DNA of 25,526 nucleotides from Candidatus Fermentibacteraceae bacterium (lineage in GTDB: Bacteria; Fermentibacterota; Fermentibacteria; Fermentibacterales; JCC-6). The notes under the pieces are model-generated. The model was not told the origin of the DNA. It saw only the letters and a list, made by a program, of their open reading frames with translations, and did not search any database. The stretch lies in the NCBI GenBank assembly GCA_041686025.1, contig JAWLEP010000038.1, positions 1 through 25,526 on the forward strand. The letters run 5' to 3'. The position numbers were made by a program, and so were the translations under genes. How positions within the stretch are numbered: the first letter of the stretch is position 1; every line of letters begins with the position of its first letter. Positions 6,609-23,063 of this stretch are shown in pieces.

Positions 6609-8456
6609 CTAGCGGATCACCACCAGTGTTCTGGTGTCGACCTCACTGCCAGCCTTGAGCCTGCAAAGGTAGAGGCCGGGCTGAAGACCGCTGACCTCTT
6701 CCTGGTGCGTACCCGCGGACAGCTCGCCGTCCACCAGCGTCCGCACCAGCCTGCCGGAGCAGTCGAAGATCTCCAGCGAGACGGCGGAGCCGCCCGGGAC
6801 GCCGAACCGCAGCATGGAGCTGCCGGTGCTGGGGTTGGGGGCAGGGGTGGAAAGACCGAAGCCTCCCAGCGCGGTTGAGCCCTCGCTCACACCATAGGGA
6901 TCCTGCCAGTTGATGGTGACTTCCTGGAGTGAGGGGGTAGCGGTGTAATCGCTGCTGTTCAGGACCATCTGGTACTGGACGTACCGCGCGATGTCCACAT
7001 CTATCAGACCGCCCGGAGTGTATATGGGATCGGACCATTCACCCATGTTTCCGGGGTTGTTGGAGGTGCGGACCAGGAAATGGATGTCGGTCTCGCTGGG
7101 CTCGCTGGAGGTCCAGTCCAGCGTCGTGTACAGGGAGTACATTCCCGTGTCCAGTATCTTGGAGACCAGGTTTCCTTCGGAGGAGTATCCGACGACCTCC
7201 CACCACTTGAGCTGGTTGGAGTCGCCGCCCGTGGCCACGAGATCGCTGTTTCCGTTGCCGTCGATGTCGGCGATGAACACGCCGCTGGCGCCGCCCATGG
7301 AGCCGCTGGCAGTCCGCTTGGTCCAGACGGTGCCTATCTTGTTCAGGTTCTCGAACCAGGCAACTTCGTCACCGTTGGCGGCCGCGCCGGCCACGTCCAT
7401 GTCGCCGTCGTTGTCAATGTCCGCTATGGCCAGCGATGAGACCTGGTCAAAGCTCGTCTCGATGGTGTGTGAGTCCCAGTTGTAGCCACCGCCCTTGTTC
7501 TCGTAGAAGACCACGTCGTCGGAGTAGTAGGTCCCCACCACCACGTCGATCTCGCCGTCGGCGTCGACGTCACCGGTAGCTACCGCGCAGGCGCCGTCTA
7601 TATCGCCGTCGATGGTGTTCTGAGTCCAGCTGGTCCCGCTGCCTGTGACGTTGCGCCACCAGCATGCCTGGCCGTTGTAGTAGCTCATCCCGACGCCCAC
7701 CACGTCCATTTTGCCGTCGCCGTCGATATCGTCGGCGACAACGCCATAGGCGCTGTTGAAGTTGGCGTTGATGGGCCTCTTGATCCAGTCGCTGCCGCTG
7801 CCGTCCACGTTCTGCCACCAGACGATGTCGTTGTCGGAGTAGGCGGCCCCCACCAGATCGTCGTAGCCGTCGCCGTTTATGTCGGCGGGGTAGATGTCCA
7901 CCCCGCCCGTGAAGGCGTCGTCGATGTCTATGCGGGTCCAGTACTCGCCGCTGCCGTTGAGGTTCAGCCACACCGCGACCAAGTCCTGGGAGCTGGATAC
8001 CGCCGCGATGTCCTTGTCGCCGTCCGCGTCCACATCAAGAGCGCATACCGCCGCGCCGCCCTGGAAATCCGTGGAGAGAAGATCACCCGACCAGGACGTT
8101 CCGTCCCCGTTGTTCTCCCACCAGAAGACCCTGCCGTCGTCCTCGTTCACGGTAATGAGGTCGGGATGACCGTCCCCGTTGATGTCGTCCACCCACACGT
8201 CGCTGGCCCCTTCGAGGCCGCCTATCACCGTGTGCTCGACGGGAGTGGTATGGGATACATCCAGCGTGACCTGCCCCGTCTCGAAATAGGATATGTGTGA
8301 GCAGGTGTGGAAGTCGTCGCCCCAGGCCGAAACCGGACCGGGGCTTCCGCTGCCGCCGCTCCAGTCGGTCTGAGTCTCGCTGTATGCCATCGCCGGAGCC
8401 GCAAATGACATTGCGACAACCGCCGAGAACGCAATAAGGAAACCACCAGTTTTCAT
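6609..8456 (-). CDS. Secreted FG-GAP/VCBS-repeat beta-propeller protein with Ig-like T9SS-type/FlgD-like C-terminal domain
   Basis: Signal peptide (..APAMA|Y), seven DxNGDGxxD-type Ca-binding repeats, a beta-rich linker domain, and CTD PAPNP...IFDCSGRLV...PGLYLCRL...LVVIR. Confidence 0.85.
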   Translation of the reverse strand: MKTGGFLIAFSAVVAMSFAAPAMAYSETQTDWSGGSGSPGPVSAWGDDFHTCSHISYFETGQVTLDVSHTTPVEHTVIGGLEGASDVWVDDINGDGHPDLITVNEDDGRVFWWENNGDGTSWSGDLLSTDFQGGAAVCALDVDADGDKDIAAVSSSQDLVAVWLNLNGSGEYWTRIDIDDAFTGGVDIYPADINGDGYDDLVGAAYSDNDIVWWQNVDGSGSDWIKRPINANFNSAYGVVADDIDGDGKMDVVGVGMSYYNGQACWWRNVTGSGTSWTQNTIDGDIDGACAVATGDVDADGEIDVVVGTYYSDDVVFYENKGGGYNWDSHTIETSFDQVSSLAIADIDNDGDMDVAGAAANGDEVAWFENLNKIGTVWTKRTASGSMGGASGVFIADIDGNGNSDLVATGGDSNQLKWWEVVGYSSEGNLVSKILDTGMYSLYTTLDWTSSEPSETDIHFLVRTSNNPGNMGEWSDPIYTPGGLIDVDIARYVQYQMVLNSSDYTATPSLQEVTINWQDPYGVSEGSTALGGFGLSTPAPNPSTGSSMLRFGVPGGSAVSLEIFDCSGRLVRTLVDGELSAGTHQEEVSGLQPGLYLCRLKAGSEVDTRTLVVIR

Positions 8457-8562
8457 CCGTTACCACCTTGCCAGAGCTGTGCCAACCGTCGCCACCACCA
8501 TAGGGGCCAACCCCAATGATTAAAGCCCAATGCCTACGGCGTCAATAAGGAACACTGCGGGT

Positions 8563-8581
8563 ATTTCATATATTATGAAAT
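8563..8581. promoter_or_regulatory. AT-rich 8-3-8 palindrome, candidate operator upstream of the FG-GAP gene
   Basis: ATTTCATA-TAT-TATGAAAT with perfect arms; a minus-strand TTGACG -35-like hexamer lies at 8540-8545. Confidence 0.55.
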
Positions 8582-8631
8582 TCATGCTTTAGTACGATAG
8601 GCCCCATCGGTCCATCAGATGCACCTGGATA

Positions 8632-10512
8632 CTAGTAGTAATACCATATGGTTCTGTAGTCCCAGGGGTCCTCGCCCCTCTCCACAAGGCGCTGCAGGTA
8701 CTGAAGTACGGGCACGTCCGTGTAGGCATAGCAGGGCACGGCCGCCAGGTTCTTCTCCCAGGGATGGAACTCGTAGACCCTTCTACCGTCGGGGCGGAGC
8801 ATGATCAGCCTGTGGTCCTGCCAGGCCCTGAGGTGGTTCTTGCCCAGGTTGGGGACGTTGAACACCGACTCGTCGGTCCTGTCTAGGCCTGGAAGCAGCC
8901 TGGCCTCCTCCTTGCGCTCCTGCAGTATCCTGGCTATCGGAACGCGAAGGCTGCCCGTCTCCTCCTTGCCCTTCATGTTGAAGTTGTAGTAGGGCTCTAC
9001 GCCTATCCTCCTGAGATCTACGCGAAGCCGTGCCGTTTCGAATCGCCTGGAGTTCTCGACGGTGAAGACCTGCTGGTTGTAGACGCTCATTCCCGCCGTT
9101 CTTATTCGCGCGACAGCGTCACGGGCCTCGGGCGTTATCTCGTAGGGATGCTCGAAATGGGTCACCACCGAGACCTCCCTGACACCGGGAACGTTGAAGC
9201 CCGCCAGCATTTCCACCAGGTCCCCCGTCCACCGCATGGGCAGCACGACGGGAGTTCTCGTGCCGATCCTGATCCTTCTGATGTGATCCATGGATGCGAA
9301 CCCGGCTACGAACTGCCTCAGCTTCGCGTCGCTCATCACGCAGGGGTCTCCTCCGGTGATCAGCACCTCCTCCAGCTCCCGGTGGTCCTCGAACCACCTC
9401 AGGGCGGTCTCCACCCTCTCGGGGGTGGCCAGCGCGTTGGGGGCCATCACCTGGTCGATCTCCCAGTTCCTCTGGCAGTAGACGCAGATCTGCGCGCAGG
9501 TGTTGAAAGGCTTGAAGATGGCGATACTGGGGTATCTGCGGGTAACCAGGTCCACCGGAGAGGTGTTCCGCTCACCCATGAAGTCGAAGAAGTCCGACCG
9601 GTCCTCCTTGTGATCCAGCATCCCCGTCACGTAGTCCAGAGAGGGTATGACCTGGGCCCGCACCGCGTGGTCTAGACCCTCCCGCGGATCCCTGTCCATG
9701 AGGCTCATGTAGTAGGGAGTGACTCCGAACGGAATGCCGTTCTCGCAGGCCAGGGACACGGCCCTGAGCCTGTCCTCGGACAGCTCCACCAGGCTGCTCA
9801 GGGTCTGCGGGTCCCGGACCACGTTGACCAGGTGCCAGCGGTAATCGTCCCAGAGCCCTTCCGCACAGTCCATGGCTTCCATGATCCGTCGGCGGCTGGC
9901 CCGACGGCGCTCCACCACTTCGGGCTCCAGACCGGAACGGTACCTGCGCATCAGGGCGTGCATCTCCGAGGCCTCCCGGTCCAGGGCCCGGGTCCTCTCC
10001 ACGGCCGCCTCCCTGCCGCGGCGCCGGAGAAAGGCGGGTATGTAGTCGGCGGGGACTCCACCTTCCCCATAGATCCCCGAACGTCCCTCCACCGCCCTCA
10101 GCAGATGGATCATCTCCATTACGAAGCAGGCGGAAGCTTCCCCGGTGTCGCCCTTCGCAAGGCGGAGGAGCGTATCCAGAGTGGAGCACCCGGCTCTCTT
10201 CTCGCAGACCCTTCCCAGGAAGTTCTTGAAGGTCTGGATTGCCTCCCTGGAGTTGGCCTTCTCCAGGGGATGCAGCCTGCAGCCCAGCGAGAGCAGGCGG
10301 CGCTCCCGGGCTTCCAGGTAATCGAACAGACCCTCCCTGGCCTCTCCGGGGGTTTCGGCGGAATCAAGAGCCCTGTGGATGTGCGGGCTGTCGTTCCACA
10401 TCAGGCGGACCAGCGGCCCGATATCTTCGTCGATTGACGGGAGGTTCCTGTATACCTCGCGCAGGCTCTCGGGCCCCTCGAGTTCCCTTGTTGTCTCGTA
10501 GCTCAGCTCCAT
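8632..10512 (-). CDS. KamA-family radical SAM PLP-dependent aminomutase, long form (glutamate 2,3-aminomutase-like residues)
   Basis: TRRYP, CAQICVYCQR (CxxxCxxC), LITGGDP, RIGTRTPVVLP, THFEHPYEIT and PLP-lysine region PNLGK. Start at ATG 10512 preferred for RBS spacing (GGGGGTG). Confidence 0.88.
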   Translation of the reverse strand: MELSYETTRELEGPESLREVYRNLPSIDEDIGPLVRLMWNDSPHIHRALDSAETPGEAREGLFDYLEARERRLLSLGCRLHPLEKANSREAIQTFKNFLGRVCEKRAGCSTLDTLLRLAKGDTGEASACFVMEMIHLLRAVEGRSGIYGEGGVPADYIPAFLRRRGREAAVERTRALDREASEMHALMRRYRSGLEPEVVERRRASRRRIMEAMDCAEGLWDDYRWHLVNVVRDPQTLSSLVELSEDRLRAVSLACENGIPFGVTPYYMSLMDRDPREGLDHAVRAQVIPSLDYVTGMLDHKEDRSDFFDFMGERNTSPVDLVTRRYPSIAIFKPFNTCAQICVYCQRNWEIDQVMAPNALATPERVETALRWFEDHRELEEVLITGGDPCVMSDAKLRQFVAGFASMDHIRRIRIGTRTPVVLPMRWTGDLVEMLAGFNVPGVREVSVVTHFEHPYEITPEARDAVARIRTAGMSVYNQQVFTVENSRRFETARLRVDLRRIGVEPYYNFNMKGKEETGSLRVPIARILQERKEEARLLPGLDRTDESVFNVPNLGKNHLRAWQDHRLIMLRPDGRRVYEFHPWEKNLAAVPCYAYTDVPVLQYLQRLVERGEDPWDYRTIWYYY

Positions 10513-10697
10513 AGGATGCATTCACCCCCCAGTTAAAATATCCACATAGCCATGCCGGTTCCCCGGGCCGTCCGCCGAGGCCGTCTCTGTGCCCGGAAGG
10601 GTGCTGCCCGCCGGCGGAAGTCGGCCCGCGGCCGCATCGGCCGTACCGCCGTCGCGAATAGCGGTATTGCTTGCGCTAGGCAGGATCTGCGGTCGGT

Positions 10698-10732
10698 CCA
10701 GGAATGCCGTCGCAACCAGGAATGCCGTCGCA
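10698..10732. repeat. Tandem direct repeat, 2 x 17 bp (period 18)
   Basis: CCAGGAATGCCGTCGCA at 10698-10714 and 10716-10732. Confidence 0.9.
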
Positions 10733-10805
10733 CCCCAGCCAGAAGCGTCTCTACATTACAGGATATGCATCTGAGCGTTCAGATCAAGCCCCCCACAGCA
10801 GACCG

Positions 10806-11231
10806 CTACTCGACGTAGTCGGGATAGATGCTCTCCGGTGGCCATATGTCGTAGTCTATCTCCCGCTGCCGCCCGTGCCCCCACATCCACTTGATCCAGT
10901 CGCCCCGGTCCTCCCAGTACCACACGGATCCGTCGTCGCTGTTGTACAGCCAGACCCTGCCCTCGGACCCCCAGTCCCAGTAGACGTCGAACCTGGCCGG
11001 AAACTCGGACATCCTGTCCTGGTGGACGACGCCCCCGTCGAGGTCGGTAATGGTAACCATCCACACCGGGGTGCCGGCCATCTCGGGGAGGGCGGACTCG
11101 TTCACGGGGACCGTGAGCACGTAGTTGCCGTCGGGGGAGACCAGGGGCTGCTGCTGTCCGCGGGTGGAGGTTGATGAGCATCCCGCAGCTGCAAGGCAGG
11201 CGGCGAGGCGGGCTGCTGTCCAAGCATTCAT
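10806..11231 (-). CDS. Hypothetical lipoprotein (Trp-rich, partial propeller-like)
   Basis: Lipobox LAAAG|C at residue 18, VSPDGNY motif and GGGAGG RBS. Confidence 0.75.
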   Translation of the reverse strand: MNAWTAARLAACLAAAGCSSTSTRGQQQPLVSPDGNYVLTVPVNESALPEMAGTPVWMVTITDLDGGVVHQDRMSEFPARFDVYWDWGSEGRVWLYNSDDGSVWYWEDRGDWIKWMWGHGRQREIDYDIWPPESIYPDYVE

Positions 11232-11397
11232 TTGCGACCTCCCGTTGGAATACCGTTCTCATCGGATGCCGGCGCGGGTCCTCTCGCATGACAATACGCC
11301 AATACCGCTCCCACACAAAGTCGTCCCTTGTCGATACCGGAGCGGCTGATTATTCCATTTGTTCCAGTTGCCCAAACCTCTGAAAGAAAGGTGGAGC

Positions 11398-11937
11398 ATG
11401 GCAGACAAGAGCAGGGAAGAGCGGAAGAAGGCCGTCATCGAAATCCTCAACGAGGCCAGGAAGATGGAGCTGCACGCCATCGTCCAGTACATGAACCAGC
11501 ACTACGCCCTCGACGACATGGACTACGGCGAGCTGGCGGGCAAGATAAAGCTCATCGCCATCGACGAGATGAAGCACGCCGAGGACTTCGCCGAGCGGAT
11601 CAAGGAGCTGGACGGCGAGCCCACCGCCGACCGCGCCGCGGACGTCACCCCCGACCAGGCCGTGGAGCAGATCTACCCCTTCGACAGCGGGCTGGAGGAC
11701 GATACAATCGAGAAGTACAACAGCTTCCAGGCGGTCTGCAGGGAGAACGGCGACAGCATCACGGCCAAGCTCTTCGAGAGGATCATCAAAGAGGAGCAGA
11801 TACACCTGAACTACTTCGACGACATCGGAGAACACATCGAGCAGCTGGGCGCCGCGTTCCTGGCCCAGAAGGCCGGTACCCCCTCCGACACCGGTCTTAC
11901 CATACTGGGATTCGTGGCCCAGGAGGGCGAGGAGTAA
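11398..11937 (+). CDS. bfr: Bacterioferritin (Desulfovibrio-type)
   Basis: Ferroxidase ligands ARKMELHA, IDEMKHAE (with the haem-ligating Met), LEDDTI and EEQIH. Closely resembles D. desulfuricans Bfr as I recall it (QYMNQHY.LDDMDYGELA, AGTPS.TG). ATG 11398 follows AAGGTGGAG. Confidence 0.93.
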   Translation: MADKSREERKKAVIEILNEARKMELHAIVQYMNQHYALDDMDYGELAGKIKLIAIDEMKHAEDFAERIKELDGEPTADRAADVTPDQAVEQIYPFDSGLEDDTIEKYNSFQAVCRENGDSITAKLFERIIKEEQIHLNYFDDIGEHIEQLGAAFLAQKAGTPSDTGLTILGFVAQEGEE

Positions 11938-16783: not shown

Positions 16784-18145
16784 CTAGTGGACCACCAGCT
16801 TCTCCACCATGGCCTGCTCACCCGCATCCAGCCTGCACAGATAGACTCCGGGACAGAGCCCCTTCACCATCACTGTGCGGCAGGTTCCTGAGGCCTCTCC
16901 GGCGAAGAGGCTCCTCACCCGCCGGCCGGAAAGGTCGAAGACGGAAAGGTCCAGCGAACGGCCGGCCGGAGCGGAGAACGTTATCTCCGCCGAACCGGAA
17001 GTCGGGTTGGGAGAGGGCCGGGAGAGACTGATGCCCGAGACCGGCAGAACGCTGGCACCTTCGGTGCCCTCGGGGTATTCGAACCATGCGTAGTAGAGGC
17101 TCCCCTCGTTGGAGTTGCAGTAGGAGATGTGTGGCGCCTCCAGGCTGTCCAGCGCCAGGGACGGGTAGGCGCCCACGTCGCCTTCAGAGTCAACGGTGTA
17201 GCTCGCCCATTGGCTGCCTGTCCAGTAGGTGTAGACGAGATCATGCATGTCCGGATCGTAGTGGGCGATCCGGGGCCTGTCCTGGCTGTCAATGGTCAGC
17301 GACGTGTAGTATCCTCCGGGACAGACGTCCTCTACGTGCCATGTGGAGTCCGCGTCCATATAGGCGTAGGACAGGTAGTGGTTGTCGGCATTGTGACAGG
17401 AGATGTGCGGCCTTCCGTAGCTGTCCAGTGCGATGGAGGTGAAGCGGCCCGGACCATCTTCCGTGATGACTTCGCTGTACCATTCGTTGCCGTCCCAGTA
17501 TGCGTACTTGAGCTGTCCCAGGTTCCCCTCGTAGTGTGAGACGTGAACGTTGTTGCCGTCGTCCAGGGCCAGGGAATTGTTCAGACCGTCAGCATCTCCC
17601 CCCAGCCAGGGCTCCTCGTCGCACCACTGGGTCCCGTCCCAGTAGGTCAGGTTCAGACTTGCCCATCCGATGTCCGCGATGTTCCCGTGGGAGATGTAGG
17701 GCATGTCTCCGGTATCCAGGGCAATCGAAGCGTAGAAGCCTGTGCATAGCGACGAATCCGCCACGGAGACTTCCCACCCCGCTCCGGTCAGCACGGCGTA
17801 CTTCAGCATCTCGTTGTCATAATCCTGGTAGGCTATGTGCGGACAGTCGCCGGAGTCTACGACGATGGAAGTGTGGCGACCCACATCGGTGTCCGGCGAG
17901 TCATCCACGAATTCCGTCTGCCAGGAGCTTCCATCGTAGTGGGCGTACTTCAGGTCCCCTTCCAGTATCTCGCTGTTGTAGTAGGCTATGTGCGGCAAGT
18001 CCTGTGAGTCCAGCGCAAGGGAGCTGTACTTCCCTACGTCATCGCCGGGGTCCACAAGCTCTATCTGCCATCCCTCTGCAGGGGACTCCGAAGCCATGAG
18101 AAACAGGGCTGTGAGGATCACGGCGGCCATGGGCACGCATCTCAT
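16784..18145 (-). CDS. Secreted 7-repeat beta-propeller protein with Ig-like T9SS-type CTD
   Basis: Signal peptide, seven SLALD..PHI(A/S)Y...LKYA..W repeats and CTD PSPNP...VFDLSGRRV...PGVYLCRL...KLVVH. Confidence 0.85.
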   Translation of the reverse strand: MRCVPMAAVILTALFLMASESPAEGWQIELVDPGDDVGKYSSLALDSQDLPHIAYYNSEILEGDLKYAHYDGSSWQTEFVDDSPDTDVGRHTSIVVDSGDCPHIAYQDYDNEMLKYAVLTGAGWEVSVADSSLCTGFYASIALDTGDMPYISHGNIADIGWASLNLTYWDGTQWCDEEPWLGGDADGLNNSLALDDGNNVHVSHYEGNLGQLKYAYWDGNEWYSEVITEDGPGRFTSIALDSYGRPHISCHNADNHYLSYAYMDADSTWHVEDVCPGGYYTSLTIDSQDRPRIAHYDPDMHDLVYTYWTGSQWASYTVDSEGDVGAYPSLALDSLEAPHISYCNSNEGSLYYAWFEYPEGTEGASVLPVSGISLSRPSPNPTSGSAEITFSAPAGRSLDLSVFDLSGRRVRSLFAGEASGTCRTVMVKGLCPGVYLCRLDAGEQAMVEKLVVH

Positions 18146-18330: not shown

Positions 18331-18380
18331 CAGTGGTAACGATGCCGAAATCGAATAACAGCATCCCACATGGAGGAAGC

Positions 18381-20450
18381 ATGGCGCAATCGCGGAAGGA
18401 CCGAATGAGCTACCCCCGTACGGAGAAGCGCGAGGTGGTGGACGAGATACACGGAAGGCGGATAGCCGACCCCTACAGGTGGCTGGAGGACGATACCGCC
18501 GACGAGGTGGAGGACTGGGTACGCCGCCAGAACGAGGTAACCTTCGACTACCTCCGACGCATACCGTTCAGAGAATCACTCAGGGACAGGCTGCGTCAGC
18601 TGATGGACTACCGGCGCTACGGCGCCCCCTTCATCGAGGGGGGCTACACCTACTTCTTCATGAACGAGGGCCTGCAGGACCAGCCGGTGCTGTACCGCCA
18701 GCGCCAAGGCGCCGAGCCCGAGGTGTTCCTCGACCCCAACACCTTCTCCGAAGACGGCTCCACCTTCCTGGCCGGCATAGAGTTCACCCGGGACGGCGGC
18801 CTGGCCGCCTACCAGATCTCGGAGGCGGGCTCGGACTGGCGAAAGGTCTTCGTCATGGACACCGAGAGCAGGGAGCTGCTGGAGGACCGCCTGGACAGCG
18901 TGAAGTTCTCCACCCTGGCCTGGAAGGGCAGGGAGGGCTTCTTCTACAGCTCCTACGAGGAGCCGGGAGGGGGCAGCAGGCTCAGCGCCAGGACCGACAG
19001 GCACCGTCTGCTATACCACCGACTGGGCACGCCCCAGAACGCCGACGAGCTGGTGCTGGGAGGCCAGGAGACGCCCCGGCGCTACATCATCGGGCAGACC
19101 AGCGAGGACGGCCGCTGGCTGGTGGTCTCCGCCGCCGTGTCAACCAAGGGCAACGAGGTCTACATCATGGACCTGGCTTCCCCGGACCCTCAGATGGAGC
19201 AGGTGGTGAAGGGCTTCGAGAACACCCACGCCTTCGTGCACAGCATAGGCGACGATCTCTACTTCCTCACCGACATGAACGCCCCCAACCGCCGGCTGGT
19301 GCGCTTCGCAGCCTCCAGCCACGACCCGGAGGGATGGGAGGACGTCATACCGGAGGCCGGGGAGCCGCTGACGGTCTCCGCCGGGGGCGGCAGCTTCTTT
19401 GCCCGATACCTCCGCGACGCCCTGTCGGCCGTGATCCGCTTCTCCCCCGACGGCCGGCGCCTGGAGGAGCTGGACCTGCCCGGAAAGGGAACGGTGCTGG
19501 GACTGTCGGGGAAGTGGGACCAGTCCACGCTCTACTACCTCTACACGGACTACCTTACGCCGCCTTCCATCTACTCCTACGACACCGGCAGCGGCGAGAC
19601 GACTGTCTTCCGGGAGAGCGGCCTGGACTTCGACCCTTCCCGATACGAGTCGCGGCAGGTCTTCTACCGCTCAGGCGACGGCACCCGGGTTCCGATGATG
19701 CTCACCCACCGCAAGGGCCTGGAGCGCGACGGAGAGAACCCGGCGATGATGTACGGGTACGGTGGCTTCAACAACAGCCTGACGCCCGTCTTCAGGACGT
19801 CTGCGGTGGTCTGGCTGGAGAGCGGCGGCATCTACGCCGTCCCCAACATCCGCGGCGGCGGCGAGTACGGAAGGAGCTGGCACGAGGCCGGCACGAAGAT
19901 GAACCGCCAGAACGTCTTCGACGACTTCATCGCGGCAGCGGAGTACCTTGTAGACGAGGGATACACCTCTCCGGGAAGGCTGGCGATATCCGGAGGCTCC
20001 AACGGAGGCCTGCTGGTGGGGGCCTGCATGACGCAGAGGCCGGAGCTGTTTGCAGTAGTGCTCTCTGCAGTGGGGGTCCTGGACATGATCCGCTACCACA
20101 GGTTCACCGCCGGAGCCGGCTGGGCCTACGACTACGGCACCGCCGACGACAGCCCGGAGATGCTGGACTACCTGCTGGGCTACTCCCCCTACCACAACCT
20201 CGAGGAGGGCACATGCTACCCTGCGACCCTGGTGACCACCGCCGACCATGACGACCGGGTGGTGCCCGCCCACTCCTTCAAGTTCGCCGCCAGGCTCCAG
20301 GAGGTTCAGGGCTGCAGCAGGCCGGTGCTCATACGGGTGGAGACCAGATCCGGCCACGGAGCCGGCAAATCCGTCTCCAAGACCATCGAGGAGCAGGCGG
20401 ACCGCTGGGCCTTTACCTTCCACAACATGGGGGTTGAGCCGAAGCGATAG
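18381..20450 (+). CDS. Prolyl oligopeptidase (peptidase S9A), cytoplasmic
   Basis: DPYRWLED, YGYGGF, RGGGEYG and catalytic GGSNGG (Ser), DDRV (Asp), SGHG (His). ATG 18381 follows GGAGG; no signal peptide. Confidence 0.95.
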   Translation: MAQSRKDRMSYPRTEKREVVDEIHGRRIADPYRWLEDDTADEVEDWVRRQNEVTFDYLRRIPFRESLRDRLRQLMDYRRYGAPFIEGGYTYFFMNEGLQDQPVLYRQRQGAEPEVFLDPNTFSEDGSTFLAGIEFTRDGGLAAYQISEAGSDWRKVFVMDTESRELLEDRLDSVKFSTLAWKGREGFFYSSYEEPGGGSRLSARTDRHRLLYHRLGTPQNADELVLGGQETPRRYIIGQTSEDGRWLVVSAAVSTKGNEVYIMDLASPDPQMEQVVKGFENTHAFVHSIGDDLYFLTDMNAPNRRLVRFAASSHDPEGWEDVIPEAGEPLTVSAGGGSFFARYLRDALSAVIRFSPDGRRLEELDLPGKGTVLGLSGKWDQSTLYYLYTDYLTPPSIYSYDTGSGETTVFRESGLDFDPSRYESRQVFYRSGDGTRVPMMLTHRKGLERDGENPAMMYGYGGFNNSLTPVFRTSAVVWLESGGIYAVPNIRGGGEYGRSWHEAGTKMNRQNVFDDFIAAAEYLVDEGYTSPGRLAISGGSNGGLLVGACMTQRPELFAVVLSAVGVLDMIRYHRFTAGAGWAYDYGTADDSPEMLDYLLGYSPYHNLEEGTCYPATLVTTADHDDRVVPAHSFKFAARLQEVQGCSRPVLIRVETRSGHGAGKSVSKTIEEQADRWAFTFHNMGVEPKR

Positions 20451-21047: not shown

Positions 21048-23063
21048 ATGCAGATATCCGCTCTTCTACTGATGGCGCTGGCACTGCAGGCCGGCCCGCT
21101 CTCATTCTCCGCAGATCCCTCCCAGGTCGATATCGTGCCCTTCATGGATGGAGAGGCTGTCACGATGCCCGGCGGGGCGCCTGCCTTCGAGCCCGGCGAC
21201 CCCCATCTGCCGGGGGTTACCTACTCCCTGGCCCTCCCCCAGGGCACGCGGCTGGCAGACGTGGAGGTGGAGGTGCTCTCTTCGGTGGAGCTGCCGGGGG
21301 TGCACAAGATAGCCCCCGTGGTGGCCCATCCTCTGAGCCGGCCCATTCCCGCCGTAGCCTACAGGTCCGACGCCTACGGAAGCGGCACTTTCCCCGGGGA
21401 TATGGTAAGAAGCATCGATACCGGAACCAAGACGGGCTTCAGAGTAGGGTCGTTCTGCTTCACCCCCGTCTCATGGGACCAGGACACCGGCAGGCTGCAT
21501 CTGGTCACGGAGGCCAGGCTGACTCCAGTGATCGCCGCCGACCCGGACGCACCCGTTCTGGAGCTGTCGGAGCTGCAGATACGGACCGCCATGCGGGGTC
21601 TGGAGGAAATGGTGGAGAACCCCGGCATGCTCACGGAGTACGCTCCGATGCAGAGCGGCGTCCGCGGAACACCGTGGGTGGTGATCGCAGACGAGGCCCA
21701 CCAGGAGACCCTGCAGCCGCTGATCGACCTGCGGGAGACCACGCATGGCGCCTCCTTCGTTTCCACGCAGTGGATATACGCCAGCTTCGAGGGCCGGGAC
21801 ACGCAGGAGCAGATCAGGAACTACCTGAAGGACGCCTACGATAACGACGGCCTGGTGTACGCCCTGATAGTGGGCGACTACGGCGAGACAACCCGCCTGT
21901 CGGGCCTGACCCTGAGCGGGAACACCATGAACGCCACCGCCGACCTCTACTACAGCGACCTCGACGGCGACTGGGACCTGGACGGCGACAGCCAGTTCGG
22001 AGAGCTGGAAGACGCGGTGGACTACTACAGCGACATCTACACCGGCCGGTTCAGTACCGACGTGCCATCCCGCCTGGAGACCATGGTGGAGAAGGCGGTT
22101 GCCTACGAGACCGAGTCCCCCGAAGGTCCCTGGGCCACCACCGCCCTGCTGGCCGGCGCCGGCCTGTGGGTGGACGACCCTCCCGGTTACTGGGGCTCCT
22201 TCGTATGCGACTCCATCGACACCAGGATTCCCGACTCGTGGGATGTGCACAAGCTCTACGAGGACTACGAGTCCCACCCCGACAACCAGATAGAGATCTA
22301 CAACCAGGGCGTCTCCTACAGCAGCGTCAACGGACACGGAAACGCCGGAGGGATCTACTGGTACTACCAGCCGTCAACCGGAATCGTCACCAACTCCAAC
22401 TACAGCGATCTGACCAACCAGGACATGCCCGTGGTCTTTCACTCCATCGCCTGCCATCCCGGGCACCTGGAAAACCTGGCCTGCATCGCCGAGAGGCTGA
22501 TGTTCTGGCCCGACGGCGGGGCGATAGCCGTGATGTTCAACGCCCACTGGGGCATAGGAACGCCGCCGGCCTTCGGGCCCAGCGAGTGGCTGGAGCTCTA
22601 CTTCGCCGACGTCCTGTTCGCCCAGCAGCAGTACGAGCTGGGGGTGGCCCACGCCCTCTCCAAGGACCAGTTCAAGGCCGAGGTGAGCATCACCTGGCAG
22701 CGGTGGATACTGCAGGAGAACAACTACCTTGGCGACCCCGCCCTGCGGTTCGTGGCCGGTCAGACGGGGGTCGGCGGAGATGAGCCCGGGCAGGGACCCC
22801 GACGGCTTGCGCTGGGCACGCCTTGCCCCAACCCGGCCACCGGTAGCTGCGCCATCGGCTACAGCGCCCCGCAGGCCGTGCGGGCCAGGCTGGTGGTGTA
22901 CGACGTGGCCGGCAGAGTGGTCTCCGAGGCTTTCAGCGGAGAGCTTGCCGCCGGCGATGGCGCCCTGGGGCTGGACGTGTCGGGCCTGCCCTCCGGCTGC
23001 TACAGAGCCGTACTTGTATCTCCCGAGGGTATGGCCTCCACCCCGCTGCTGGTGCTCCGCTAG
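21048..23063 (+). CDS. C25-family (gingipain-like) cysteine peptidase with propeptide and Ig-like T9SS-type CTD
   Basis: Signal peptide, propeptide (EPGDPHLP), IRNYLKDAY, LIVGD, DLYYSDLDG, GRF, catalytic NGHGN (His) and SIAC (Cys), LGDP, and CTD PCPNP...YDVAGRVV...PSGCY...LLVLR. Confidence 0.9.
   Translation: MQISALLLMALALQAGPLSFSADPSQVDIVPFMDGEAVTMPGGAPAFEPGDPHLPGVTYSLALPQGTRLADVEVEVLSSVELPGVHKIAPVVAHPLSRPIPAVAYRSDAYGSGTFPGDMVRSIDTGTKTGFRVGSFCFTPVSWDQDTGRLHLVTEARLTPVIAADPDAPVLELSELQIRTAMRGLEEMVENPGMLTEYAPMQSGVRGTPWVVIADEAHQETLQPLIDLRETTHGASFVSTQWIYASFEGRDTQEQIRNYLKDAYDNDGLVYALIVGDYGETTRLSGLTLSGNTMNATADLYYSDLDGDWDLDGDSQFGELEDAVDYYSDIYTGRFSTDVPSRLETMVEKAVAYETESPEGPWATTALLAGAGLWVDDPPGYWGSFVCDSIDTRIPDSWDVHKLYEDYESHPDNQIEIYNQGVSYSSVNGHGNAGGIYWYYQPSTGIVTNSNYSDLTNQDMPVVFHSIACHPGHLENLACIAERLMFWPDGGAIAVMFNAHWGIGTPPAFGPSEWLELYFADVLFAQQQYELGVAHALSKDQFKAEVSITWQRWILQENNYLGDPALRFVAGQTGVGGDEPGQGPRRLALGTPCPNPATGSCAIGYSAPQAVRARLVVYDVAGRVVSEAFSGELAAGDGALGLDVSGLPSGCYRAVLVSPEGMASTPLLVLR

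Follow-up and report, generated by a model that had tools for sequence, protein, structure and literature searches.

Lysine 2,3-aminomutase of Clostridium subterminale binds its substrate through two aspartates, the second of which we take to be Asp330, and in glutamate 2,3-aminomutase, as Ruzicka and Frey reportedly noted in 2007, lysine and asparagine replace these two residues. A glutamate 2,3-aminomutase of the same KamA family from Methanococcus maripaludis C7 is said to be extended by about 160 residues at its N-terminus and to have been assigned, by the account of Tunckanat et al. in 2022, from glutamate-type pocket residues and from the formation of β-glutamate in vivo. Here we analyse a long-form KamA-family aminomutase gene, of the radical S-adenosylmethionine (SAM) and pyridoxal 5'-phosphate (PLP) type, which lies on a 25,526-nucleotide stretch of DNA from a Candidatus Fermentibacteraceae bacterium; this whole stretch is referred to below as the window. 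We consider it probable, from the residues predicted to line its pocket, that the encoded enzyme is a glutamate 2,3-aminomutase which converts L-glutamate to β-glutamate (3-aminoglutarate).

The review by Roberts (2005, PMC1224877) documents β-glutamate in methanogens, and in a few bacteria, where it acts as an anionic osmolyte; a glutamate aminomutase route to this compound was at that time thought to be excluded. Genes given as 'eam (beta-glutamate)' appear among the Na+ riboswitch-associated genes in a later paper (PMC9337991), and a preprint (10.1101/2025.11.21.689712) states that archaeal glutamate 2,3-aminomutase makes β-glutamate as an osmolyte.

Family, fold and pocket residues of the window protein

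The open reading frame (ORF) of the aminomutase runs from 8632 to 10521 on the reverse strand, to which all coordinates of its parts refer, and encodes 629 amino acids, with the stop codon at 8632–8634. Its product scored 307.7 bits against the KamA family model TIGR00238 (cut-off 199.2), with residues 212–560 covering profile positions 2–331 of 331, a match that the genome search confirmed, and a Pfam search returned Radical_SAM as the sole match. The only solved relative found by sequence was lysine 2,3-aminomutase 2A5H (phmmer E 2.8e-36). A model computed with AlphaFold2 from 48 long-form sequences (predicted local distance difference test score, pLDDT, 90.9; predicted template modelling score 0.89) was aligned by VIA-align through its residues 207–592 to residues 3–393 of 2a5h_A, with Z 40.5 and a root-mean-square deviation of 1.9 Å over 338 residues at 28% identity. 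Foldseek recovered the same structure at E 1.1e-21, and the next, unrelated radical-SAM matches of the structural search reached only Z 13. These results confirm that the window protein belongs to the KamA family and has the lysine 2,3-aminomutase fold, with a shared catalytic core (radical-SAM partial barrel and PLP site) at residues 207–565 (8827–9903).

Among the models that describe individual functions, the one for glutamate 2,3-aminomutase (TIGR04368) was the top-scoring equivalog, at 214.9 bits (216 bits in the genome search), though all of them stayed far below their cut-offs: 650 bits for the glutamate model, 525.4 for AblA (TIGR03820, score 168.4), 600 for arginine 2,3-aminomutase (score 160.4) and 369.3 for EpmB (TIGR03821, score 126.3). 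In BLASTP the protein was 31% identical, over residues 166–529 (E 3e-49), to P0207, a short sequence that scores above the glutamate cut-off, and 29% identical to the AblA-class sequence P0267.

The cysteine motif CAQICVYC occupies residues 342–349 (9475–9498) and holds the three cysteines Cys342, Cys346 and Cys349 of a CxxxCxxC pattern, the site of the [4Fe-4S] cluster that cleaves SAM, which is invariant in the 48-sequence alignment; it is followed by Arg351. The initial annotation had pointed to the motifs PYYNFNMK and, 38 residues later, VFNVPNLGK, and to a lysine and an asparagine at the two specificity positions next to a retained PLP lysine. Both motifs were found, at residues 510–517 and 553–561, with Lys517 and Asn555 separated by 38 residues. 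Checking of the codons placed Lys517 at 8971–8973, Asn555 at 8857–8859 and Lys561, the lysine of the NLGK motif that is predicted to bind PLP as an internal aldimine, at 8839–8841. Lys517 stands opposite Asp293 of the C. subterminale enzyme in the HMMER alignment to 2A5H, the position being counted from that alignment, Asn555 falls in the MAFFT column of the second aspartate of the lysine enzymes, and Lys561 aligns with the G-G-K lysine of both AblA-class and glutamate-class sequences.

The Lys/Asn rule was checked empirically by classing short KamA homologues with NCBIfam models and aligning them with the long forms (MAFFT, 124 sequences). In the columns of residues 517 and 555, the pair was Asp/Asp in three of three sequences above the AblA cut-off, in 15 of the 16 for which AblA was the best model but whose score was below its cut-off, in three of three AblA_like_2 sequences and in the single EpmB-like one. 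It was Lys/Asn in the one sequence above the glutamate cut-off (P0207, 693 bits) and in all six that scored best, but below cut-off, with the glutamate model (488–590 bits). Within the alignment the Lys/Asn pair was found only in these glutamate-model sequences and in the long clade to which the window protein belongs; there, Asn555 and Lys561 are invariant and Lys517 is at least 90% conserved across 48 diverse long forms. The window protein has the complete Cys-Cys-Cys-Arg-Lys-Asn-Lys pattern, and so do 73 of 74 genome-derived long forms of full length, the remaining one having Gln at 517. As judged from the aligned sequences, the Lys/Asn signature is real, non-random and common to the long clade and the glutamate class. 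Since the window protein shares this pair with the glutamate-model sequences, and lysine-type sequences have Asp/Asp, conversion of glutamate to β-glutamate is its most likely function.

A lysine 2,3-aminomutase making β-lysine is what the names given to many homologues by the Joint Genome Institute (JGI) would imply, and the sole solved relative is a lysine enzyme. We nevertheless find this very improbable, as both lysine-binding aspartates are replaced at positions where Asp/Asp is the rule in AblA-class and AblA-like sequences, the AblA model scores less than its cut-off by a wide distance (168.4 against 525.4 bits), and the LAM_C domain and the C-terminal cysteine triad are missing. LAM_C (PF12544) was not detected in the window protein or in the whole genome, and a search of that genome (2.70 Mb, 94.75% complete) found neither ablB nor an AblA-class enzyme, nor any further KamA-family protein above cut-off. 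The observation in the initial annotation that the gene has no ablB, lysine-fermentation, efp or epmA neighbours thus extends, for ablB, to the genome as a whole; in the window, none of these genes was seen.

If the mechanism of lysine 2,3-aminomutase is taken as a guide, a reduced [4Fe-4S] cluster would cleave SAM to give a 5'-deoxyadenosyl radical, which would take the C3 hydrogen from glutamate bound as an external aldimine of PLP. The amino group would then move from C2 to C3 via an azacyclopropylcarbinyl radical and the hydrogen would be returned, with Arg351 holding the α-carboxylate, and Lys517 and Asn555 the γ-carboxylate. The β-glutamate formed would most likely be an anionic compatible solute that balances K+, as in methanogens, although we place less confidence in this osmolyte role in the host than in the chemistry.

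The start of the gene is uncertain by three codons, because a G-rich stretch lies immediately ahead of the first ATG of the ORF. An alternative start at Met4 (ATG at 10512) would give a protein of 626 amino acids; the ESM Atlas record of the window protein begins at residue 4, and the database representative P0002, 100% identical to the window protein, has 626 amino acids. The end coordinate 10512 given in the initial annotation corresponds to the ATG of Met4, but the ORF itself reaches 10521.

The long clade and its terminal domains

Of 7997 proteins scored in a homologue search, 4782 reached E <= 0.001, and the best 120 of the 4782 are 606–682 amino acids long and 53–100% identical to the query over at least 93% of its length. 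They come from KSB1, Desulfobacterales, Planctomycetota, Eremiobacterota, Bacteroidales and archaea, and are named only 'KamA family radical SAM protein' (NCBI) or 'lysine 2,3-aminomutase' (JGI). An exhaustive search of cluster representatives gave 3179 at E <= 0.001, among which identity in full-length matches goes as low as 38%. In contigs from one genome per species, a locus search built on 13 closer sequences yielded at least 589 confirmed relatives, bacterial and archaeal (589 of 603 pattern matches, among the matches listed). Members of the long clade include methanogens, namely Methanothrix, Methanosarcinales and Methanomassiliicoccales, and a cultured bacterium, Prolixibacter denitrificans DSM 27267, has a member with 54% identity (L042). 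No Methanococcales name appeared among the 120 matches listed in a search started from the AT-rich representative P0133; the control genome of M. jannaschii matches KamA models, not LAM_C, and none of the 14 control genomes reaches the cut-off of the short glutamate model. Within the window's own phylum (70 genomes) the distribution is patchy, and in a sister family seven of nine genomes carry the gene at E <= 1e-100. Nothing distinguishes the window gene from the rest of the long clade.

In a maximum-likelihood tree of the core domain (69 rows, 344 columns, a quick IQ-TREE setting), all 37 long rows, out of 91 available, fell on one side of a branch of length 1.85 with support 100. The tree omitted four degenerate representatives and the truncated P0217. 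The long clade meets the short forms at an unresolved base, from which the rows that score best with the glutamate model also arise, and the lysine, AblA_like_2 and EpmB-like rows form, together with two weakly glutamate-scoring rows, a subgroup with support 89. Rows of archaeal origin (Methanothrix/Methanosarcinales, Methanomassiliicoccales) stand intermixed with bacterial rows. Aligned and placed in a tree with lysine-, glutamate- and EpmB-type sequences, the long forms thus have Lys and Asn as in the glutamate class and stand as a clade of their own. The long form is a family in its own right, and of the characterised classes the glutamate enzyme is the one nearest to it.

The large helical N-terminal extension proposed in the initial annotation, put there at about 200 residues, is borne out by the model, in which 206 residues (9904–10521) precede the part that superposes on 2A5H and all of this region is helical. 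Residues 1–17 are predicted to be disordered, helices span residues 35–144, and two long helices follow at 170–217. Measured against the short glutamate-type P0207 the extension is 163 residues, as the BLASTP alignment begins at residue 166; residues 166–206, about 40 in all, have aligned counterparts at the N-terminus of the short glutamate-type enzyme as well, so that the part unique to the long clade comes to about 163–165 residues. Three residues of the extension, Arg62, Phe133 and Gly197, are invariant in 48 long-form proteins, and Arg176, Leu180, Arg206 and Ile213 are also invariant in 31 N-terminal segments.

Modelled alone, the N-terminal part had a pLDDT of 81.9. The search for its structural relatives among 48,161 chains gave a best Z of 5.9, none reaching Z >= 8, and returned generic helical bundles only; on this predicted model, the fold search speaks for neither novelty nor relationship. 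As a stand-alone domain it was found in none of 323 word-sharing short proteins at E <= 0.001, in a search of low sensitivity at about 35% identity. Among 11 longer homologues, TetR_N, DnaJ and Peptidase_M54 occurred once each and six had no Pfam match. These fusion partners are uninformative, and some may be merged gene calls. The helical bundle of the long clade may have a regulatory role, or it may take over from the Zn/LAM_C domain in oligomerisation.

The C-terminal domain, residues 566–629 (8635–8826), is likewise specific to the clade, as judged by conservation across the 48 sequences. Its 64 residues have a mean top-residue frequency of 0.69, Trp626 and Tyr628 are invariant within the terminal WYYY, and exactly 288 residues separate the first cluster cysteine from the C-terminus in 40 of 48 long forms. 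A part for the free C-terminus in structure or catalysis is possible. Cys597 is the only cysteine beyond Cys394 in the window protein, and C-terminal cysteine triads are present in three of three AblA-class sequences (377/380/383, 391/395/398 and 399/403/405). The Zn-binding cysteines are therefore absent, as the initial annotation had stated, but this is no distinguishing feature of the long form, since P0207 is likewise without a cysteine beyond residue 323. Two sequences just below the glutamate cut-off do carry LAM_C.

Four representatives of the long clade have lost residues of the active site: P0135, P0142 and P0190 lack the cysteines of CxxxCxxC and P0145 lacks the PLP lysine. All four retain the overall length and the C-terminal motif, and they may be non-catalytic paralogs.

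Gene neighbourhoods and the role of the product

In order to look at gene context in relatives, ORFs were called and clustered in 80 fetched loci, many of which are cut by contig ends. No neighbour was universal and no pathway partner was conserved across lineages in the 80 loci. Genes for MscS channels were found in nine loci, across lineages, and TrkH genes in four. In four loci MscS lies within 1.5 kb of the aminomutase (Methanosarcinales L064, Bacteroidales L070, Methanothrix L072 and Ignavibacteria L074), against a chance expectation which we roughly estimate at about 0.2 per 80 loci; five of the nine MscS-bearing genomes, including all four adjacent cases, have 1, 2, 2, 4 and 4 MscS genes each. 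In the Methanothrix locus (L072:5245-9773), TrkH, MscS and the long aminomutase stand in one same-strand row, with the MscS and aminomutase ORFs overlapping by 4 bases, which looks like an osmotic-stress gene cluster. The presence of MscS or TrkH beside the gene in relatives fits an osmolyte-making role, and this context supports such a role for the clade, not specifically for the window gene.

A different use of the same chemistry has to be weighed here. In this bacterium the product could be, not an osmolyte, but a metabolic intermediate, for instance at the entry to or exit from a fermentation of glutamate or β-amino acids, or a building block of a secondary product, and we hold this tentatively as a possibility. 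An AlaDh_PNT-type protein is encoded in 11 of the 80 loci, all in Bacteroidales or Bacteroidetes records, and a saccharopine dehydrogenase also in 11, ten from Bacteroidales/Bacteroidetes and one from Ignavibacteriales; both dehydrogenase-type clusters fit such a use, as does a class I/II aminotransferase in the flanks of four loci, each time within 1.5 kb. In the window itself there are no osmotic neighbours, and a 2-oxoacid:ferredoxin oxidoreductase pair lies 5 kb downstream of the aminomutase. Moreover, bacterial glutamate 2,3-aminomutase serves glutamate fermentation according to the preprint 10.1101/2025.11.21.689712, and the homologue IdnL4 supplies β-glutamate for incednine (PMC11284099). 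However, the catabolic partners are not conserved across lineages, the commonest cluster being confined at 11 of 80 loci to Bacteroidales/Bacteroidetes, the neighbours that do cross lineages are MscS and TrkH, and a histidine kinase and a secreted FG-GAP protein separate the oxidoreductase pair from the aminomutase in the window. In an arrangement confined to the Bacteroidales/Bacteroidetes lineage, the aminomutase is followed by both the AlaDh_PNT-type protein and saccharopine dehydrogenase in L008, L009, L015, L020, L022, L024, L026, L029, L031 and L082, and L010 has the AlaDh_PNT-type protein without saccharopine dehydrogenase.

Several observations weigh against reading the window gene as a glutamate 2,3-aminomutase that makes an osmolyte. 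At the level of the enzyme, the protein falls far short of the curated glutamate cut-off (214.9 against 650 bits), and in the tree the long clade lies at the end of a very long branch, outside the short glutamate-type sequences. The loop from Asn555 to Lys561 is one residue shorter than in lysine enzymes, so that the equivalence of Asn555 with the second aspartate rests on where the sequence alignment places its gap. Charged residues absent from the short enzymes lie near the pocket, namely Lys519 of a KGK motif and Arg548, both invariant, and Thr549, Asp550 and Glu551, which with Arg548 form an RTDE motif and are near-invariant in the long clade; the pocket could therefore differ from that of the short enzymes. 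At the level of the role, no osmotic or glutamate-related neighbour was seen in the window, which also has no Rfam match at gathering score and hence no Rfam riboswitch, and the MscS association in relatives emerged post hoc, from an inspection of about 25 neighbour clusters. Only two of the 59 other genomes of the window's own family carry the gene, a genus mate at 81% identity and another at 68%. Finally, β-glutamate is seldom reported in bacteria (PMC1224877).

Part of this evidence is what one would expect if the substrate were another one, such as aspartate, 2-aminoadipate, glutamine or the glutamyl moiety of a larger molecule, and the Lys/Asn pair were a trace of shared ancestry. The long branch between the long clade and all short forms, a score of one third of the glutamate-model cut-off, the clade's own charged residues by the pocket and its two clade-specific domains all agree with this. 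Lys/Asn/Lys and Arg351 are, on the other hand, exactly as in P0207, the one N-terminally extended form studied so far reportedly yields β-glutamate, and the strong conservation of the protein between phyla (53–59% identity, with at least 93% of the length covered) points to a single small-molecule substrate that has been conserved. We therefore consider another substrate unlikely, and return to glutamate as the probable one.

A bolder extension of the glutamate reading, which we regard as rather doubtful, is that β-glutamate is a far commoner bacterial solute than supposed, that it is made by the long enzyme, and that the N-terminal bundle is a built-in sensor, of K+ or of ionic strength for instance, through which the aminomutase is switched on. 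If true, this would concern hundreds of anaerobic lineages, including Bacteroidales, Ignavibacteria, KSB1, Desulfobacterota and the window's phylum, and switching by a sensor without a change in transcription would account for a gene that mostly has neither a regulator nor pathway partners beside it.

Around the gene in the window, the same-strand neighbour at 6609–8456 (reverse strand) encodes a secreted FG-GAP protein that carries a type IX sorting domain. On the other flank lies a small ORF without family (10806–11231) and, past it, a ferritin/bacterioferritin-like gene at 11359–11937 (forward strand), divergent from the aminomutase. The ferritin-like gene is the only neighbour common to the window and to the 81%-identical relative (L003, where it lies at L003:6596-7678 on the reverse strand). 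A promoter scan of 8300–11500 found one promoter-like site (0.7 expected), located downstream of the aminomutase, and a terminator scan of the same interval found no terminator-like site. A 17-base direct repeat is present in two exact copies, with one base between them, at 10698–10732 (reverse strand), about 180–210 bases upstream of the aminomutase start, against about 0.02 matches expected by chance; the repeat could be a regulator binding site, and its exact sequence was not found in any fetched locus of other genomes.

Elsewhere in the window, C-terminal sorting domains of type IX secretion are present in the FG-GAP protein already mentioned, in a BNR-like protein at 16784–18145 (reverse strand) and in a C25 (gingipain-type) peptidase at 21048–23063 (forward strand), and a prolyl oligopeptidase is encoded at 18333–20450. 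The host appears to be a proteolytic bacterium with a type IX secretion system. Its genome also holds a distant KamA-like radical-SAM ORF of 517 amino acids (L002:967-2520, forward strand, contig C34), which scored 68.6 bits against TIGR00238, far under the cut-off, and matched only the central part of the profile.

Comparison with known aminomutases

The initial annotation regarded the gene as a KamA homologue mislabelled as lysine-type, with an acidic substrate, probably glutamate. The Lys/Asn pair, the best-scoring equivalog model, BLASTP and the neighbours of the gene in relatives all speak for this view. Its alternative of a new aminomutase is unnecessary, as the clade is huge and an N-terminally extended M. 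maripaludis enzyme is reportedly already on record. For annotation, the consequence is that thousands of proteins now named only 'KamA family' or 'lysine 2,3-aminomutase' have glutamate-type pocket residues and could be better described. If the glutamate reading is true, the capacity to make β-glutamate would reach beyond methanogens to bacteria of at least several hundred species, given the at least 589 matches, and would bear on the K+ balance of anaerobes in saline sediments. For the two domains specific to the clade, the helical bundle at the N-terminus and the C-terminal domain with its final WYYY, we found no structural precedent here.

Compared with KamA/AblA, as represented by the C. 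subterminale enzyme (PDB 2A5H), the window protein has the same fold and cofactor motifs, and presumably the same radical mechanism, but it has Lys/Asn in place of Asp/Asp, about 206 additional N-terminal residues, neither LAM_C nor the cysteine triad of the Zn site, and no ablB or lysine-fermentation genes were found with it. The short clostridial-type Eam described by TIGR04368 is nearer: it shares the radical-SAM/PLP core, CxxxCxxC, the PLP lysine and the Lys/Asn pair, and the helices at residues 170–217 of the window protein align with its N-terminus. In contrast, the window protein is only 31% identical to it, carries 163 additional N-terminal residues, belongs to a separate clade on a long branch, and has its own C-terminal domain where two near-cut-off sequences carry LAM_C. 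The M. maripaludis C7 enzyme, which may belong to the same clade and has a reported extension of about 160 residues, is matched by the window protein in the length of the extension (163 residues measured against P0207) and in the Lys/Asn pair, whereas the window gene is bacterial, has no osmotic neighbours and comes from a small candidate-type phylum with 70 genomes in the collection. The gene thus appears to be a further member of a kind of enzyme that has already been described.

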